Of a stretch of DNA of 64,000 nt, positions 54,026 through 64,000 are shown piece after piece. The notes under the pieces were generated by a model. That model was not told the DNA's origin. It saw nothing but the letters and a program-made list of their open reading frames with translations, and ran no database searches. A program made the translations under genes and the position numbers. The first letter of the stretch is position 1. Each line of letters opens with the position of its first letter. Source of the stretch: Bacillota bacterium (GTDB lineage Bacteria; Bacillota; Sulfobacillia; JAMCWA01); assembly GCA_023475165.1 (NCBI GenBank), contig JAMCWA010000034.1, forward strand, positions 31,081 to 95,080, in the 5' to 3' direction.

Positions 54026-54218
54026 CCTGAAGAAGTCCAGCTTCTCTCAGCTCACTGGGTTTGGGTCGATGTAATTGATGCTCCTCGCTGACCTGGAGCA
54101 CTACGGCCTTCCGGCCGGTACCGTCGTAAACTCCCGTCCCTGGGGGGCGAGCATCTTGCCAAATGGCTTAGGCGCAAGTCATAAAAGTCATAAAAGGTAA
54201 GGCGCTCGCTCCCCCGTT

Positions 54219-54262
54219 TAGGAGACGCTGAAAAACATGAAAAACAAACACCCTAGTGTGGC
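54219..54262 (-). repeat. Repeat family, degenerate boxA-type fragment (copy 15)
   Basis: TAGGAGACGCTGAAAAACATGAAAAACAAACACCCTAGTGTGGC. Confidence 0.4.
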
Positions 54263-54336
54263 CTTTAAGGAGGTGTTATTCCTTCTTGCACTTAGTACGT
54301 CCGGATAAGAAGTGGCCGTATTGGCCGGCCCTCTCA

Positions 54337-54568
54337 TTCGGAGCCTTGTCGCTTGTAGCATCTCTGAGGGTCTTGGCCTTATAATTGGGCTAAAGCCGCC
54401 AGGAACAACCGCTATTCAGCGCGGCAGAGACTATGGCAGCTTTATTTGTTTTCGCGCGCGAACCAGGTCGCAGGCGGCTAGACATCGAGCGCGGCAGCCA
54501 CTGGCAGAGACTATGGCAGTTTTGCTCGGGCGACAACTCAAAACGCAGTTCATCAGCACTCTCCTAGG
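54337..54568 (-). repeat. Repeat family, near-full copy in inverted orientation (copy 16)
   Basis: CGGAGCCTTGTCGCT ... GGGCTAAAGCCGCCAG ... two copies of GGCAGAGACTATGGCAG ... CTCGGGCGACAACTCAAAACGCAGTTCATCAGCACTCTCCTAGG. Confidence 0.8.
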
Positions 54569-54912
54569 GGGTTTCACCCGTCTAACAACTTGGAGAACTC
54601 TTTACCCACGAAGATCACCGCTCATCGTTAGAATCTGGAGCCAGTTTCATAGGATGGCACTACGTTCATGCTATCCTTTTTTGTTTATCGGGCGGGCTGT
54701 TTTAGAGACTACTGAGTAACTCGGTGGTCTCCCAGCCTCGGTTTTTTGAGCCTCATTTGGTTCGCTCATCGGATTGACTGTCCTGACAGTCCTAGGTTTT
54801 CTCATATCGTTCGGCCCGAGCCGAACGGGTACTTTATAGAATGAACCGCTTGTGAATTAACGAACCATCCTGAATAGCGTCGCGATTCCGCATCGCGAAA
54901 ACTTTTTCTCAC

Positions 54913-56504: not shown

Positions 56505-56595
56505 CCTGGCGGTTGCGCCGTAATCTCCATTTTAGGGGAAGTTAATCGGCGGCTTGCGCCAACGCAGATGGGGGTTTTTCAGCGGTTTCCTAGTT
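56505..56595 (+). repeat. Repeat family, copy 17
   Basis: CCTGGCGGTTGCGCC ... GGCGGCTTGCGCCAACGCAGATGGGGGTTTTTCAGCGGTTTCCTAG. Confidence 0.65.
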
Positions 56596-56604
56596 GGGAA
56601 CGCA

Positions 56605-56643
56605 GGGCCCTACCTTCTCACAAGGTAGGGCCTCTTTTTTGTT
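56605..56643 (+). terminator. Rho-independent terminator between the Nramp-like gene and sigK
   Basis: GGGCCCTACCTT-ctcaca-AAGGTAGGGCC followed by TCTTTTTTGTT. Confidence 0.65.
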
Positions 56644-56744
56644 GGTTAGGGCTCGACAATTCGGCTGGAAAAAAGGAGAGTTCTTAATCGTTGTTTTTTA
56701 CCTGGCGCCGACCGCTGTACTGGCACCGACCGTCCCTTCCCGGC

Positions 56745-56753
56745 ATACTATAG
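56745..56753 (+). promoter_or_regulatory. Mother-cell-type (sigE/sigK) -10 element CATACTATA upstream of sigK
   Basis: Matches CATAnnnTA, with AC about 17 nt upstream. Confidence 0.4.
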
Positions 56754-56790
56754 AAAGGTGACCGGAATCTCCATCAGCGGGGGTGAAAGT

Positions 56791-57150
56791 TTGGAAGGCG
56801 CACTGATCTGGCTGCTGGTGGCTTTCCTCAAAAGTCTGCGACTGCTGCATGGCTATCTCAGTAGTAACACCTTTCCCCAACCCCTGAGTGAAGAGGAGGA
56901 AACCCGCTACCTTAAGTTGCATGAAAAGGGCGATCTGAAGGCTAAAGGTGTACTGGTGGAAAGGAACCTGCGCCTGGTGGCCCACGTGGTGAAAAAATTC
57001 GGCAACATCCCGGATTCGGAGGATCTCATTTCAATAGGCACCGTAGGGCTGATCAAGGCCATTGACACCTTCGACCGTAAGAAGGGCACCAAGTTGGCCA
57101 CCTATGCGGCGCGCTGTATTGAAAACGAAATCTCAAAGACAGCACCTTAG
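56791..57150 (+). CDS. sigK: RNA polymerase sigma-K factor, 5' portion only (pro-sequence plus region 2); gene interrupted by an intervening element
   Basis: [23 protein letters not shown]...[13 protein letters not shown]...[17 protein letters not shown]...[17 protein letters not shown] is colinear with SigK. It then diverges (SKTAP*) into AT-rich DNA at about 57135. TTG 56791 has a GGGGGTG SD (the ORF-track GTG at 56758 is an alternative). A CATACTATA sigE/sigK-type -10 lies upstream. Confidence 0.8.
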
Positions 57151-57580
57151 CTATATTTTGGGGCTGTTTTGGGTGATTTTTAGCTAAAAGAAGATGATAG
57201 GGACAGAAATTAAACCATAATAAAATATTGAAATTTTTTTGAAAACTAGCAGGAAATTTCGAGTTTGTAGCTAATAAAATTAGTAGCTGCCAAAAGTGAA
57301 TATTATAGGGAATGATGGGGGTGGAAGAGACCCTTGCGGGCGCCGTAGGAGTAATTTATCGCGAGGTGGCGCGATAAAGAACCTCTCAGGCAAAAGGACT
57401 ACTCCCGAACCCAACTCTGGAGAGTTTCCTTAAAGTATGTTTTAAGGAGCGCCAAAGGGGAAAGCAGAGGATTGCTAATCTCTCAGGCAAGAGGTGATTG
57501 GCAGGAATCGTACGTAGGTGTGAGGTGCTCCGTGTTGCCGCAAGGCGGGGGGAGAATTGTGTGAAGGGAGGTGAGGTAAC

Positions 57581-57796
57581 ATGCCCGTGCTGGTTCATGA
57601 GGGGATTTACCAGATCCATTGGTGCATCCACAGCGGATCTGCAGCACTGCCCCTTTCCCTGACCAACCGAGCATCGGCGGAGGAGGCTTCGAAGATCGTC
57701 GAGAAGGGACTAATGGGGATGCGCGGACAGCGGATCCTGGAGCAGTTGTTTGCGAACAAGATGGCACTGTCGGAGGCGTTGTCGTGGGAGAAATGA
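57581..57796 (+). CDS. Small ORF (71 aa), candidate precursor peptide of the downstream radical-SAM operon
   Basis: Strongest SD in the region (GGGAGGTGAGG, 5-nt spacing). An aromatic/His-rich N-terminus (HEGIYQIHWCIHS) and a C-terminal ...LSWEK. A 10-bp-stem hairpin follows before the rhodanese gene. Confidence 0.35.
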   Translation: MPVLVHEGIYQIHWCIHSGSAALPLSLTNRASAEEASKIVEKGLMGMRGQRILEQLFANKMALSEALSWEK

Positions 57797-57823
57797 GTTG
57801 CGTCAGTGCACCGCGCGGTGGCC

Positions 57824-57855
57824 AGGGGGTCCGCCGCCTTCGTGACGGACCCCCT
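57824..57855 (+). promoter_or_regulatory. Stable hairpin between the small ORF and the rhodanese gene (putative attenuator / mRNA-processing structure)
   Basis: AGGGGGTCCG-12 nt-CGGACCCCCT, a 10-bp GC stem with no U-tract. Preceded by the palindrome CACCGCGCGGTG. Confidence 0.4.
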
Positions 57856-57894
57856 ACTGTGCGAAGAACGGAGTCAGAGAGGAGAGGATCACAT

Positions 57895-58233
57895 ATGCAA
57901 ATTGACGCCATAACAAAAGAGGAGTTGCTGTCCATGTATGGTAATCCAGACGTCATTGTACTCAATGTCCTTCCCCGCGACTGGTTTGAGCGTGCCCATA
58001 TCCTGGGGTCGATCTCAATCCCCGTGGAAGAGTTGGCGGGTCGCTTGGACTGTTTACCTAGCGACAAGCTCATCGTTACGTACTGCGCAAGCTACGGGTG
58101 TACCTCCTGTGTCGAGGCGGCGCAGTTCTTGGCCAGCCACGGCTTTAACGTCAAGGTTTACAGAGGTGGGACCAAGGAGTGGATGGAAGCCGGTCTTCCG
58201 TGGGAGGGCAGCGAAAGAGACCATGAGCCCTGA
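57895..58233 (+). CDS. Rhodanese-domain protein (single-domain sulfurtransferase)
   Basis: ATG 57895 with a GGAGAGGA SD. Rhodanese fold with a Cys loop (TYCASYGCTSC). The long upstream extension in the ORF track is low-complexity and rejected. Confidence 0.7.
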   Translation: MQIDAITKEELLSMYGNPDVIVLNVLPRDWFERAHILGSISIPVEELAGRLDCLPSDKLIVTYCASYGCTSCVEAAQFLASHGFNVKVYRGGTKEWMEAGLPWEGSERDHEP

Positions 58234-59434
58234 TCATCCTCTCGCGATCCTACGCGATTCCCCGCTGTACGCTTCGGACCCACGTTTCCGACGCAGAGCG
58301 GATATGCGACTGGCTCGGGAGCAGAAGTTTGCCACCCTGCGCCTGTTCAACCTCGACATAGAGGTTACCACGGTTTGCAACCTAGCTTGTAGGACCTGCT
58401 ACAATCTACCGGCCCAGACACAGATTATGAGAGTGGAGGAGTTCAGCCATATCCTGGCGGACGCACGGCAGCTTGTCGGTCGTCTGGGCATGGATGGGCT
58501 CTGGCTGACGATTTCCGGTGGAGAGCCGTTAATGAATGAACACCTTTGGGACATGCTTCGGCTGGCCCAAGCCCAAGGCGTTGAAGGTATTGCCATCATC
58601 ACTAATGGCACCCTCGTCAACGAAGAAACGGCAAAGCGGATTCGATCTCTGGGGATCTCAGAAGTCATGATATCGCTCGATGGGGCTAGCGAGCGGATAC
58701 ACGATGCCATCCGGGGCCTCGGGTCGTTTGCAAGGACCATCGGCGGCGTTAAGGCTATGATGGAGCACTGTTCCGGTACATTCCTTGGCTGCACACTGAC
58801 CCTTACCAAGCTAAACATGGACGAGATCAAAGCTTACGTCGATTTCGCCTTCGACCTGGGGTTCAACTATGCGTGGATCAATCCCCCGCTTTACTGCGGG
58901 CGTATGGTGCAATCACAGCTTAGCATCTCGTACGAGGAACACATAAGAGTGATGAATCTCGTTAGAGAACTCGACACCAGGTACTTCAGGCAGGGTTTCG
59001 CGGTGTACTATAATGTCCCGTACTACCCGCTTACTGATCCGATCTCTCCCTATTTGGATCTGAGCACGGCCTGCCCCTGGGGTCGCAACAACCTAACTGT
59101 CACCACCGACGGCTCAGTCCTCCCTTGCTTGTACAGTCGCGACTTACGTTTGGGGAATGCCTTCGAACAGCCCCTAGTCGCCCTCTACCAATCATCTGTG
59201 CTGAAGGGGTTCCGTGACGGATCGCTGCTCGCTGAGCCGTGCCGTTCCTGCTCCTACCGGGGATTCTGCGGGGGCTGCCGTGCTAGAACGTACTATCTCA
59301 CCGGGGACTGGTTCGCTGCCGACCCTTGGTGCCCGCTTGTCCGGGGCTCCACTGAGGAGCAACTCAGGGTGTTTCCCTCGGGTTTGCCAAAAGAAAACGT
59401 GGGAGGGATGCAGCATAACAGAACGGTCGACTAA
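58223..59434 (+). CDS. Radical SAM enzyme with C-terminal SPASM domain (peptide/cofactor-modifying type)
   Basis: CNLACRTCY (CxxxCxxC) and the SPASM cysteine array (CPWG...C...CRSCSYRGFCGGCRARTY...CP). No N-terminal RRE is present. Confidence 0.85.
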   Translation: MSPDHPLAILRDSPLYASDPRFRRRADMRLAREQKFATLRLFNLDIEVTTVCNLACRTCYNLPAQTQIMRVEEFSHILADARQLVGRLGMDGLWLTISGGEPLMNEHLWDMLRLAQAQGVEGIAIITNGTLVNEETAKRIRSLGISEVMISLDGASERIHDAIRGLGSFARTIGGVKAMMEHCSGTFLGCTLTLTKLNMDEIKAYVDFAFDLGFNYAWINPPLYCGRMVQSQLSISYEEHIRVMNLVRELDTRYFRQGFAVYYNVPYYPLTDPISPYLDLSTACPWGRNNLTVTTDGSVLPCLYSRDLRLGNAFEQPLVALYQSSVLKGFRDGSLLAEPCRSCSYRGFCGGCRARTYYLTGDWFAADPWCPLVRGSTEEQLRVFPSGLPKENVGGMQHNRTVD

Positions 59435-59447
59435 CGGGGGCCTACCC

Positions 59448-60611
59448 GTGTCCTACTACATCAGGCGTTATGTCGTCGCCCTTTGCCTTCTGGAGTTCTT
59501 TGCCTTTAAGATCCTCGATCCGTACTATATCCAGTTCATGACCACGGAGCGGGGACTTGGTCTCACCCCTACCCAATTTGGCTTATTTGTGTCCCTGGCC
59601 TCGGCGGTCACCTCCGCTATCGACTACTTGTCCGGAGCCTTTGCAGACCGGCTGGGCCGGCGACTCTCTTGGGGGCTGGCAATGTTTTCTTACGGGCTAG
59701 GCATGCTATGGCTGAGTTCGGTTTCTGCCTTTGGACCTGCGCTGGTCACTGCTGTGTTCATGGGGACTTCCTACGCCTTCGCGAGCGGCGCACGCGAAGC
59801 TTGGCTCTACGATAATGTCGGCCAAGAGGGCACGCGGCAGGCCTTCGGTAAGGTCTACCTTTACTCGGTCCCGTTTACCATGCTAGGCATGGGGGCGGCG
59901 TTCGGTTTGGGCGGCCTGGGCAGCCTGCGCCTCCCGATCGCCTTGACCGGCCTTATCGTCCTGGCCGACGGCTTGTTTATCATGACCTTCCCAGAGAACT
60001 ATGGCAGTTACCGCCGCCGCGGATGGCTGGAGGTCCTCAAGGTCGGGTTCCGCCAGTTTCTGGAGAGCCGTGTTCTGTGGCTGACGGCAGCCCAGAGCTT
60101 CTTCTTCACCCTCCCTATCTGGATTACCACCGCCTGGTGGATAACCTACCTGGTGCAGCAGTTCGGCGTAGACTTGAGGGACACAGCCCTTGCCTTCGGC
60201 GTTACTTCGCTGGCTGCAGCAATGACCGGGTTTTGCATCTGCAAGATGAAGGCCACCGACTACCGCAAGCTTATCCTTTGGCCGACACTGTTATCGTCGT
60301 TGGCTTTCCTGCTGATGCCCTTGGCTCCTACGCCGTGGGCTTTCGTGGCCCTGGTCATCGCGGCGGTTGCCTCCGGCTACTTCAGGGGGAGCGGCATCAC
60401 TCTCTTGGAGAACGAGCAGATCAGTGAGGAGCGGGCGACGGCACTCTCGTTCTTGAACACCCTGCGTAGCGCATTCTGGGCGGTGGCTCCTCTCTTGTGG
60501 GGTGCCCTTATCTCCGCCTTTGGACTTGAGGTCGCATTCTTTCTCGCAGGAGCAGCTTCGCTGATCTCTCTGCTCCTGCTGATACTTGCGTTAGCGCTAA
60601 GGGGTGGCTAG
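59448..60611 (+). CDS. MFS transporter (putative exporter)
   Basis: GTG 59448 with a GGGGG SD. About 12 TM helices and a DRLGRR loop. Confidence 0.7.
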   Translation: MSYYIRRYVVALCLLEFFAFKILDPYYIQFMTTERGLGLTPTQFGLFVSLASAVTSAIDYLSGAFADRLGRRLSWGLAMFSYGLGMLWLSSVSAFGPALVTAVFMGTSYAFASGAREAWLYDNVGQEGTRQAFGKVYLYSVPFTMLGMGAAFGLGGLGSLRLPIALTGLIVLADGLFIMTFPENYGSYRRRGWLEVLKVGFRQFLESRVLWLTAAQSFFFTLPIWITTAWWITYLVQQFGVDLRDTALAFGVTSLAAAMTGFCICKMKATDYRKLILWPTLLSSLAFLLMPLAPTPWAFVALVIAAVASGYFRGSGITLLENEQISEERATALSFLNTLRSAFWAVAPLLWGALISAFGLEVAFFLAGAASLISLLLLILALALRGG

Positions 60612-60613
60612 CC

Positions 60614-61984
60614 ATGAAAGGGATTGTTGTGCCCGAGCGACCCTACCACCTATCTTGGGACCTCACTACGGCGTGCCGACTTCACTGTAGCTTCTGCTAC
60701 AGCGCTGGAGGAAGGCCCCACCCGGCCGAAACTACCGAGCTAATTGAAACGATCCTCGACAATGTGGTGGAACTGAAACCACTACACCTAGGCATCGGCG
60801 GGGGAGATCCCCTGTTAAGCCCGTACATTGCCGAACTATTGCAGCGGCTAGTGGAACGAATGAGGGACGAGACACCAATCATCACCGTGGACACTATGAT
60901 GGTGAACCGACGAGAGGATCTGGTCCGGCAGGTCCGGCGACTCAACGAGGATTTCGGAGAACACCGGATACAGTTCTACCTGAGCATCCACGGGGCCCCC
61001 GAGGTTCATGACCGAATCGTTGGACTCAAGGGGCACTTCGAGGAACAGGTGGAGGGCATCAAGCTCCTAAAGCAGTACGGGGTCAACTTCAACTTGGGTA
61101 TCGTACCGACGAGGGAAAACCTTGACCAACTCGACGCAATGCTTGCCTTGGCCCTGCGTCTGGGCGCTGGTCTCCTCAACATCTCCCAATTCGTCCCTAT
61201 CGGGAGGGGTGACCGGGCATACGATCACAACCTGAGCCCCGAGCAGTACCGTCGGCTCCTGGACTGGATCGTGACGCGTAATGCTCAACTCCGCCGGCGC
61301 TACATAGTGACCCACGAGCACTGGATGGCGGCTGTTGATCAGGCGCTTTTTACGAGCAGCCTTTTTGTTGGTTGCAGCGCTGGGATTTACTACTTCGGCG
61401 TACGCAGCAATGGCGATGTCGTTCCTTGTCAGCTTAACCCGTATGTGCTCGGCAATGTCCGGGAGGCAAGACTGACCGAGATCTGGCGGTGGCACCCCTT
61501 GCTGCAACGATGGAGGGAGCGGCGCGTTGACGGCCGATGTGGCGATTGCCCCCTGCTCTTCAAGTGCGGAGGCTGCCGGTGCAACGCTGTGGCGTACTCC
61601 GGCGACTTTTTCGGTGAAGATTCACTTTGTCCCTTTGCAGCAGAAGAGTTAATCAGCCTGAATCAAACGGGCCAAGAGGTTAACGCCACAGCAGTCAATG
61701 GCAGCTTGTCGGAAACAGCCATTAGGAATGACATGTGGATTGTAAAGCTGGTTACGCTTGCCACCCCGCAAGGCGATTCTTTGGTCATCCGCAACGAGCC
61801 CCGAAACACTTTCGTTGAGCTTAACGGTGACGCGACCATCATCTACGGCCTGGTTCCGCCACAATATGGGATCACGTTAGGTGACCTCAGGGCTGTCTTT
61901 AAGGAGCGCACAGGCAAGGAACTGCCCGTGGAGGAATTGGGGGCACTAGTCCGTTCGGGGGTCCTAGGATGCGTAGCCGGATAA
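60614..61984 (+). CDS. Radical SAM/SPASM enzyme with C-terminal PqqD-like RiPP-recognition element
   Basis: CRLHCSFCY; SPASM array (CSAG...C...GRCGDCPLLFKCGGCRC...CP). The C-terminal 100 aa (LVIRNEPRNTFVELNGDATIIYGL...LGDLRAVFKERTG) resemble PqqD/RRE. Confidence 0.85.
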   Translation: MKGIVVPERPYHLSWDLTTACRLHCSFCYSAGGRPHPAETTELIETILDNVVELKPLHLGIGGGDPLLSPYIAELLQRLVERMRDETPIITVDTMMVNRREDLVRQVRRLNEDFGEHRIQFYLSIHGAPEVHDRIVGLKGHFEEQVEGIKLLKQYGVNFNLGIVPTRENLDQLDAMLALALRLGAGLLNISQFVPIGRGDRAYDHNLSPEQYRRLLDWIVTRNAQLRRRYIVTHEHWMAAVDQALFTSSLFVGCSAGIYYFGVRSNGDVVPCQLNPYVLGNVREARLTEIWRWHPLLQRWRERRVDGRCGDCPLLFKCGGCRCNAVAYSGDFFGEDSLCPFAAEELISLNQTGQEVNATAVNGSLSETAIRNDMWIVKLVTLATPQGDSLVIRNEPRNTFVELNGDATIIYGLVPPQYGITLGDLRAVFKERTGKELPVEELGALVRSGVLGCVAG

Positions 61985-63144
61985 CATACTCCGTGCAGGC
62001 GCGGCACGTTGAGATACGCCGGGGGCGCGTTTGCGGAGTCAGAACTTACGAGGACTCCCAGGCTCATTTCGTGACGTACTTCGGGCGAACCGTCGTTGTG
62101 GACGGTGCTTGCGGACCGAGAGTGTTCACGCTTCCTCGGGCTGCTGAATGGGAACCAGACCCTGTGCATTTGGACGTCGACCGAGGTCTTCTCGAGAAAG
62201 AACGCTTGCTTGTTGCTGTTGATGTAGTGGCGAGCTATCCCGTCGATGCCGCGCTTTCGTTTTATCGGGAGGAACGGGTGGTAGAGACCGATGGCTTTGT
62301 CAAGCGCCAGTGCATAGGCTTCTATGCCTTACGGCTTCGAGAACAGTCCAGATCCTATGTGTACGCTGACGTTGCTCCCGAGAAGTTGGGTGAGCTGTGT
62401 GCTCTGCACACGCTGCCCCAGGGCGCACCCGTTCCAGACGGGCTACCGATTGTCCTAAGCCCCAACGCTGTTGGCCATATCTTTCACGAGTGGGCCCATC
62501 TACTAGAACTTGACTTTTTAGGGCATGAGGCTGCGTCGCGTATCGAGGGCAGCCCGGTCTTTGACGACTGTGCGGATCTCCAGGTCTTCGAAGATCCTGG
62601 GACAGAGACCGTGGGATTCAATGCTTTCAGCGACGACGCCCGAATCGCTAGGCGGATGCCTCTTGTAGAGCGAGGCAGGATAGCGGGGTTCATAGACAGC
62701 GCCGCATTCCCACACCGCTACTTCGGGTGCGGATATCTCGGATACAACAATAGCGGCCATCCTGTTCCTCGCACGACCAACCTCATGGTTCAGGCTAGGC
62801 CAACGGCATACGAGGTCGAGCGAGCACTAGTGGTCACTGGACTTGACCTGGAACTCTTGACCGCAGATCCCCTCCATGCTCGGATCGGCCTCAAGAGTAG
62901 CGAGGGTGTTTACGTGGAGCACGGGATGCCGGTACACCGAGTAACTTGGACGGGTGGGGGCGAAACGACGGTCCAGAGGCTAGTATCGAGCATGATGTTT
63001 CTTAACCCCTCGCATATCCGCGTCCCCGTAGTTGGTGGAATTTGTGTCAAAAATGGCATCGCGGTTCGCTCCGCTCAGAGCGCGCCAGCAGCGCTGCTTG
63101 AGGCTTGTACGGCGCGCTTACCGTGGAAGAACTTGTCGGCATGA
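61969..63144 (+). CDS. TldD/PmbA-family metallopeptidase-like protein
   Basis: HEWAH motif and a C-terminal G-rich PmbA_TldD-like segment (GYNNSGHPVPRTTNLMV). The start overlaps the previous gene. Confidence 0.55.
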   Translation: MRSRITYSVQARHVEIRRGRVCGVRTYEDSQAHFVTYFGRTVVVDGACGPRVFTLPRAAEWEPDPVHLDVDRGLLEKERLLVAVDVVASYPVDAALSFYREERVVETDGFVKRQCIGFYALRLREQSRSYVYADVAPEKLGELCALHTLPQGAPVPDGLPIVLSPNAVGHIFHEWAHLLELDFLGHEAASRIEGSPVFDDCADLQVFEDPGTETVGFNAFSDDARIARRMPLVERGRIAGFIDSAAFPHRYFGCGYLGYNNSGHPVPRTTNLMVQARPTAYEVERALVVTGLDLELLTADPLHARIGLKSSEGVYVEHGMPVHRVTWTGGGETTVQRLVSSMMFLNPSHIRVPVVGGICVKNGIAVRSAQSAPAALLEACTARLPWKNLSA

Positions 63145-63477
63145 TGAAACGCAAGCCTGCGAATCAAGTGGCAGGGCGGTTGAAGGGACGGTCCGGACGG
63201 GGCAACCGGCCCGGACCATGGGACACGGAGAGCCCGCGAGCTTGTTTGGTTGCCCCAGACGACCCGCCCAGGTGGGCCAGGAGGCCGCATACGTGAGTGT
63301 TGGGTTTGGCACGGGCAACGTGTACCGGTGTGGTCATCGGATGTTGCCGAGCTCGGTTGACAGTGGCGACGTACTGAACGGAGGTTGCCGGCCTCCTGAG
63401 CTCTCATGCGGCCAACATACCATCTTGAACACCACCACGGGGTCGACTGACGGTGCACCGGTGTGGGTGCATTAGGG

Positions 63478-63606
63478 TCTCACCATGTCGTATGCGAAAC
63501 TGAAGTCAACCACCTCGGCCAGCCTGCGCAGGAAGTGGTCCCGGGTGACACGTTTCTTCAAGAGAGAAGTCGTAGAACAGCTTGCGTGATGGCAGTTTCT
63601 TTCGCA
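63478..63606 (-). pseudogene. Frameshifted N-terminal remnant of an IS5/IS1182-type transposase
   Basis: On the minus strand, AAAGGAGGAG SD then MRKKLPSRKLFYDF, frame-shifting into ...RDHFLRRLAEVVDFSFAYDMV (DUF772-like transposase N-terminus), followed by a stop. Confidence 0.3.
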
Positions 63607-63642
63607 TAATGGCTGCAGCTCCTCCTTTGGATCTCCCCGCAC

Positions 63643-64000
63643 CTATATTTCCTTCATTTCACTAAGGGGCAAGGCCCGGCAACGCGAAATTTGGCAACAG
63701 CCCCATGACCGCACTGGTACACATTTTTCCTTGCCAAACCCACCGCGGGCGTACTGGAAGATCTCTTCGATGGCCTCTGGTGTGAAGAGGGGGGAGGTGC
63801 GCCCCGCCACCTTCAGGTGGTGGGCGATGTACTCCCTGGTTTCCGGGGCGGTGAGTCCGCGCATGTGGTACCGCACCGTGAGCCGCTGCGTGATGTGGTC
63901 GTAGCAGGAGAGCCGGAGCATGTCCCGCAGGGGGGGCTGGTCCACGAGGATGAGCGCCATGGGGCAGGTGCTCTCCATGGCGATGTTGGTGAGCAGCCTG
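63643..64000 (-). CDS. ExeA/TniB-like AAA+ ATPase (transposition helper), C-terminal part; continues past the window end
   Basis: QRLTVRYHMRGLTAPETREYIAHHLKVAGRTSPLFTPEAIEEIFQYARG matches the ExeA/TniB C-terminal signature. The ORF stays open to position 64000. Confidence 0.5.
   Translation of the reverse strand, partial: RLLTNIAMESTCPMALILVDQPPLRDMLRLSCYDHITQRLTVRYHMRGLTAPETREYIAHHLKVAGRTSPLFTPEAIEEIFQYARGGFGKEKCVPVRSWGCCQISRCRALPLSEMKEI

Follow-up and report, generated by a model that had tools for sequence, protein, structure and literature searches.

A split sigK gene that is rebuilt by excision is the textbook case of regulated gene integrity. In Bacillus subtilis, a 48-kb defective prophage, skin, separates spoIVCB from spoIIIC and is excised by SpoIVCA; it splits the pro-sequence-bearing sigK inside region 2, and we take the break to lie exactly at ENEI. 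This 'Bacillus-type' insertion site disrupts a Pfam domain (PMC7192596). Fifteen skin elements of 2.6-48 kb have no gene in common except spoIVCA, which lies at the element edge, usually just upstream of spoIIIC (Galperin et al., bioRxiv 10.1101/2022.02.25.481979). The skinCd element of C. difficile and the phage PhiS63 of C. perfringens are serine-recombinase elements that likewise split sigK, and skinCd has its recombinase gene immediately before the 3' sigK moiety (PMC5025042). The insertion site in C. difficile, C. tetani, and C. perfringens PhiS63 is nucleotide 427 (PMC3442830, PMC5025042), and the skinCd/PhiS63 core, GTAATGAAAT, lies between Pfam domains (PMC3442830, PMC7192596). Another element, gin, interrupts gerE in B. 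cereus ATCC 10987; it is not a prophage and is excised by a serine recombinase at the time of sporulation (PMC5595907).

Within the limits of the data, a skin-type element splits sigK at ENEI, a commonly used insertion site, in a stretch of DNA from an uncultured, GC-rich Bacillota lineage (the window, meaning all 64,000 nucleotides that were analyzed). An integrative element of the skin-like, sigK-intervening type probably has its left junction (attL) in the window, and for this element we infer a recombinase, a 3' half of sigK, and excision. Like the B. subtilis skin, this element divides a pro-sequence-bearing sigK inside region 2, and the predicted mechanism is the same, namely mother-cell excision that would rebuild sigK. 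The element is open-ended, its readable part past the junction amounting to 12.3 kb (the window plus 5.4 kb of the Logan contig L001). Whereas skin is a prophage, these 12.3 kb contain no phage genes and carry a riboswitch-led radical-SAM cassette. The element of the window and gin are both non-prophage elements in a sporulation gene; gin, however, targets gerE and is small, giving a 2.1-kb excised band. The sigK of C. difficile has no pro-sequence and needs the directionality factor CD1234, whereas the sigK of the window has a pro-sequence. The initial annotation had placed the break at the Clostridioides skin site as well as that of Bacillus, an equation that fails because Clostridioides uses nucleotide 427 (PMC3442830, PMC5025042), not ENEI.

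The sigK fragment and its junction

An intrinsic terminator with a 12-bp stem and a T-run (56605..56643, plus strand), found by terminator search, ends the upstream Nramp-family gene and marks the beginning of the sigK transcription unit. Reading of the sequence then gave a candidate mother-cell promoter, AC-N17-CATACTATA, at 56725..56752 on the plus strand, which resembles what we take to be the -10 consensus for sigma-K/sigma-E (CATA---TA / CATACA-T). The 5' fragment of sigK, the equivalent of spoIVCB, was identified at 56791..57150 (plus strand) by Pfam, by alignment with SigK, and by the database protein P0001. It encodes 119 amino acids from TTG at 56791 or 130 amino acids from GTG at 56758; the TTG is most likely the start, as in P0001, an identical protein called in an NCBI MAG. 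The fragment keeps the candidate promoter and RBS, and it contains the pro-sequence and regions 1.2-2.4 with every conserved block and no frameshift. Its sole detected Pfam domain was Sigma70_r2 (E 1.9e-14 for the ORF 56758/56791-57150). Identity to residues 13-115 of B. subtilis SigK was 63%.

Colinearity with SigK stops exactly after ARCIENEI (57132), and the frame continues with SKTAP and a stop, five element-encoded codons in all. The initial annotation had described an ORF colinear with pro-sigma-K through region 2 and cut at ARCIENEI, the 5' half of a split sigK being present alone, and this description held: the alignment ended at residue 115, position 57132, and the fragment lacks regions 3-4. 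A tblastn search with full-length SigK found no 3' half (regions 3-4) on either strand of the 64-kb window, and none was found in L001 either.

The junction, at 57121..57151 on the plus strand, was delimited by comparison with six other split-sigK loci (L027, L083, L085, L087, L092, and L093) and with intact sigK genes. It consists of a sigK arm, GAAAACGA, a shared core, AATC (57129-57132), and an element arm of 19 bases, TCAAAGACAGCACCTTAGC (57133-57151), so that the window reads GAAAACGAAATC|TCAAAGACAGCACCTTAGC. The break codon is identical in all six loci, and intact genes go on with CTNATGCAY at this point. The bases after the break are TCAAAGACAATATCGTAGC in L093, TCAAAGTCCATATCC in L092, TCAAAGTCTATTCC in L027, TAAAAGTC in L087, and TCACTGACAAAGCC in L083. 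The arm of L093 equals that of the window at 14 of the 19 bases, for which a binomial estimate gives a chance of about 1e-4 at fixed register, and the motif TCAAAG of the window's arm also occurs in L027, L092, and L093. A second copy of the element arm was sought in L001, where matches were at chance level and inside coding regions. Because the break codon is shared and the element arm is homologous, we conclude that this junction is an attL produced by a large serine recombinase of the SpoIVCA type.

We propose that such a recombinase inserted the element at the ENEI codons, where sigma region 2.4 ends, and that this event left a promoter-bearing 5' fragment for pro-sigma-K residues 1-114 plus the five codons of the element. 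During sporulation, if characterized elements are a guide, the recombinase would be made in the mother cell and would join attL with the attR beside the 3' fragment; the element would leave as a circle, and CIENEI|LMHLR would be rejoined in frame. The recombinase gene and the 3' fragment would lie more than 12.3 kb downstream, beyond the available sequence, as in the usual layout. The 3' fragment is expected to carry a P arm resembling GGTGCTGTCTTTGA, followed by AATC|CTNATGCAYYTNCG, and to be oriented like the 5' half. Next to attL, the element carries the 176-bp AT-rich spacer, the glycine riboswitch, the six-gene radical-SAM/SPASM cassette, and decayed IS21 copies.

Insertion sites and recombinases of related split-sigK loci

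The database survey of split sigK is a more useful result than the single locus, which adds one example from its lineage with a junction like the others. The best 120 matches of a search with the N-terminal half were classified by break site according to our own classification. In about 70 of them, distinct cut halves, colinearity ends immediately after ENEI, whereas about 19 are interrupted at a second site, which follows GNE(I) near residue 145, and 15 are full length. The ENEI codon is thus a very heavily used integration hot-spot. Tails after ENEI have the consensus E-I-[L/S]-[M/I/K]-[T/S]-[I/K], which the EISKTAP of the window fits. The skinCd/PhiS63 site corresponds to the second hot-spot, whereas the element of the window uses ENEI. 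Across the proteins P0001-P0120 and the loci L009, L022, L045, L056, and L063, both hot-spots, ENEI (about aa 115) and GNEI (about aa 145), were seen to carry N-E-I and a common DNA core, AAYGAAAT; the published PhiS63 core fits the second of them.

The ENEI site comes with a recognizable element-side arm and a dedicated recombinase clade, and with elements down to about 2 kb. Two elements from uncultured Bacillota, those of L092 and L085, are complete and have the identical break codon, and the arm of L092 has the TCAAAG motif of the window. The element of L092 (about 3.3 kb) consists, after the 5' half, of one cargo gene adjoining attL and a 489-aa Resolvase/Recombinase/Zn_ribbon protein immediately upstream of the 3' half, a 118-aa Sigma70_r4 fragment; TGAAATA is common to its attL and attR. 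In L085, the recombinase alone lies between the sigK halves (element of about 2.0 kb), the attR reads AACGAAATC|CTGATG, and the attL/attR core is AACGA-ATC. The element of the window, by comparison, is open-ended and at least 12.3 kb long, and its cargo is unrelated to theirs. The minimal element of L085 (10348-12318) is below the 2.6-kb minimum cited in the literature, and its recombinase ORF overruns attR by about 79 nt into the 3' half of sigK.

In L027 and L087 the recombinase adjoins the 5' half, in L083 the two are 2.4 kb apart, and L093 has cargo and no recombinase within 10 kb of attL. The recombinases beside split sigK form one family with 37-62% mutual identity and have the Resolvase + Recombinase + Zn_ribbon_recom architecture of B. 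subtilis SpoIVCA. A profile built from two of these sequences retrieved 343 relatives, 120 of which were listed. Pairing by equal contig size gave 10 pairs of a recombinase with a split-sigK half, one of which, in L092, was directly confirmed. The gene content shared by the window and the compared sigK elements was one TniB-like fragment (40% identical, in L087, in opposite orientation), and no other was found.

Several loci contain additional sigK copies. In a Bacillaceae MAG (L012; 3365-3535 and 14903-15232), an intact sigK has additional sigK fragments on either side, one from the 5' and one from the 3' part, the latter beginning at residue 114. In a Gorillibacterium contig (L035; 5313-5975 and 9998-10660), two full-length sigK copies lie 4.7 kb apart, and several Paenibacillus loci have extra N-terminally truncated sigK-like copies.

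The far end of the element and alternative readings

After the cassette, the window runs into IS debris. A domain search identified a TniB-like AAA_22 remnant at 63643..64000 on the minus strand, which runs off the window, and L001 contains, past the window end (7833-12300 of L001), two nested, frameshifted IS21 copies, so the IS/TniB remnants first reported are indeed present. The second istB in L001 is cut at codon ~80 by repeated TGACCCAC motifs that resemble an IS terminus, and L001 ends there. That the readable part ends in these decayed IS21 copies counts against a skin-like element; a rearrangement could have separated or destroyed its far end. Searched by tblastn with four sigK-associated recombinases, the window and L001 contained neither a recombinase nor a remnant of one. 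Recombinase-free attL sides also occur in L093, with its 10 kb of cargo, and in L092, with the recombinase next to the 3' half. Since known elements usually keep the recombinase at the far edge, its absence near the 5' half is the normal layout. With no recombinase and no 3' half in the 12.3 kb, the competence of the element for excision is unproven.

The element may instead be a dead remnant, in which integration by a serine recombinase was followed by the loss of the 3' half, of the recombinase, or of both through IS21 activity or deletion. In that case the fragment of sigK is no more than a pseudogene, and its lineage would be non-sporulating or rely on another copy of sigK. We consider this unlikely. 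It accords with the lack of a recombinase within 12.3 kb and with the two nested, frameshifted IS21 copies and the TniB remnant after the cassette. Moreover, none of the 120 listed members of the recombinase family (343 in total) was assigned to the 97,218-nt contig of this locus, in a comparison that would miss distant recombinases. A database of 5.8 billion protein clusters likewise contained no full-length SigK of this species (>70% identical), which means that no rejoined allele has been sampled.

On the other hand, the 5' fragment retains the candidate promoter, the RBS, the pro-sequence, and every conserved block, free of frameshifts. The sequence is also identical across runs; runs SRR22746137 and SRR10278331 contain the same organism, as does a second, fragmented MAG (GCA_023379645.1; L095). 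The absence of a recombinase near attL is, as stated, normal (L092, L093; bioRxiv 10.1101/2022.02.25.481979). The left flank of the fragment is ordinary chromosome with genes for a DinG-like helicase, SurE, a deacetylase, an alpha/beta SASP, and an Nramp transporter. The SASP gene, 2.7 kb upstream of the sigK fragment, is intact, so the organism appears to be a spore former. The roughly 900 nt between the SASP and Nramp genes (54026-54912) contained no called gene, and Rfam gave no match there even with the threshold at E = 0.1.

It is very improbable that the join is an assembly chimera or that sigK was truncated by chance, for instance through a deletion or an IS-mediated break. Logan contigs are short here, with ends at 56583, 57090, and 58131, and IS elements lie nearby. 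However, the Logan contig L002 (run SRR10252151) spans 56557-58131, across the junction, at 100% identity. L001 (run SRR22746115), which covers 57090-64000 at 100% identity and 5.4 kb more, starts 43 nt upstream of the junction and reads through it. The junction is therefore reproduced in independent assemblies, and the assembly error at 57135 that the initial annotation had named as a refutation is excluded. Furthermore, dozens of recombinase-borne elements interrupt sigK at exactly this codon, the arm that follows here is homologous to theirs, and the IS21 ends do not lie at the junction. The start of L001 was also considered as a branch from excised alleles; this was rejected, because a branch at k=31 would begin near 57103, not 57090.

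The glycine riboswitch and the radical-SAM cassette

The sole unusual feature of the locus is a tandem glycine riboswitch placed before a rare, apparently mobile radical-SAM cassette. Between the sigK fragment and the riboswitch, GC computation and terminator search delimited an AT-rich spacer of 176 bp with a GC content of 0.31 (57136..57311, plus strand), which probably provides the riboswitch transcript with its promoter and leader; a search of this interval for intrinsic terminators found none. The AT-rich stretch had been given as about 430 bp and shrinks to these 176 bp, the riboswitch having a GC content of 0.51. The riboswitch (Rfam RF00504) occupies 57312..57506 on the plus strand. 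Aptamer 1 (57312-57411) scored 53.2 bits and aptamer 2 (57407-57506) 39.4 bits, both above the gathering score (32), and the tandem-variant model also aligned over both. As in other tandem riboswitches of RF00504, there are two adjacent aptamers above the gathering score, a 5' leader, and genes on the same strand; the difference is that a radical-SAM cassette lies downstream here, not genes for glycine cleavage or transport.

The direct repeats described in the initial annotation, AACCTCTCAGGCAAAAGG and AATCTCTCAGGCAAGAGG, do exist, as the CUCUCAGGCAARAGG cores at the same model positions in both aptamers, but the att role suggested for them does not stand. Two near-identical 18-nt copies about 95 nt apart and close to the junction (57330-57480) could resemble att-type or terminal repeats of the element, a reading whose likelihood is negligible: it is refuted by the RF00504 covariance-model matches, each copy sitting at the same positions of an above-threshold aptamer, comparison of the junction with the repeats gave nothing in common with the core AATC or the arm TCAAAG, and the att arm of related loci immediately adjoins the break, with attL and attR of L085 and L092 sharing a short core alone.

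The riboswitch lies 74 nt upstream of the cassette. No terminator was found between it and the first cassette gene (57506-57581), the fold of 57300-57600 was uninformative (z = -0.55), and no expression platform in the form of a clear terminator or an anti-RBS was found. If the riboswitch works, it would add to the kinds of gene known to be controlled by glycine.

All six genes of the cassette lie on the plus strand. The first is a conserved ORF of 71 amino acids (57581..57796; 68-70% identical in the metagenomic contigs L089 and L090), which could be a precursor peptide. It is followed by genes for a rhodanese-domain protein (57895..58233), radical SAM/SPASM enzyme 1 (58223..59434; PF04055 + PF13186), an MFS transporter (59448..60611), radical SAM/SPASM enzyme 2, which is extended by about 100 amino acids at its C terminus (60614..61984; PF04055 + PF13186), and a TldD/PmbA-like protein (61969..63144), which is the last; the rhodanese, MFS, and TldD/PmbA-like proteins were assigned by domain search, and DNA homology with L089 ends near 63101. 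Neither radical-SAM enzyme reached an NCBIfam cut-off (best score 150.7 bits against 395), and Pfam detected no PqqD/RRE domain in the cassette. A RiPP-like nature of the cassette is plausible but unproven.

The initial annotation had called these genes foreign cargo of a kind that known skin elements do not carry. The cargo genes are there, but their composition is not foreign: their GC content is 0.575, and that of the 56 kb upstream is 0.578. Known skin elements share spoIVCA alone (bioRxiv 10.1101/2022.02.25.481979), so the cargo is no departure from them. We also considered that the attL-proximal cargo might be a peptide-modification cassette that is gated by glycine and is also transcribed by read-through from the mother-cell promoter of sigK, given the lack of a terminator after the cut ORF. 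This is improbable. Were it true, a sporulating cell would, before excision, make a radical-SAM-modified product in response to glycine, and a skin-like element would have wired a riboswitch-controlled RiPP-like cluster into the sporulation program.

The whole cassette recurs in L089 (801-6311) and L090 (1371-6911) with 73-75% nucleotide identity. Neither contig contained a glycine riboswitch or sigK, and homology with their cassettes starts near 57567, which makes the riboswitch and the AT-rich spacer specific to the present locus. The family of enzyme 2 is rare, with 22 other clusters (46-76% identity) among 5.8 billion protein clusters, and some of its members come from Theionarchaea MAGs. 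The cassette (57581-63144 of the window) looks like a mobile module that occurs in unrelated genomic contexts: in L090 it follows an rRNA operon and a Crp-type regulator, and in L089 it lies beside an intact IS21.
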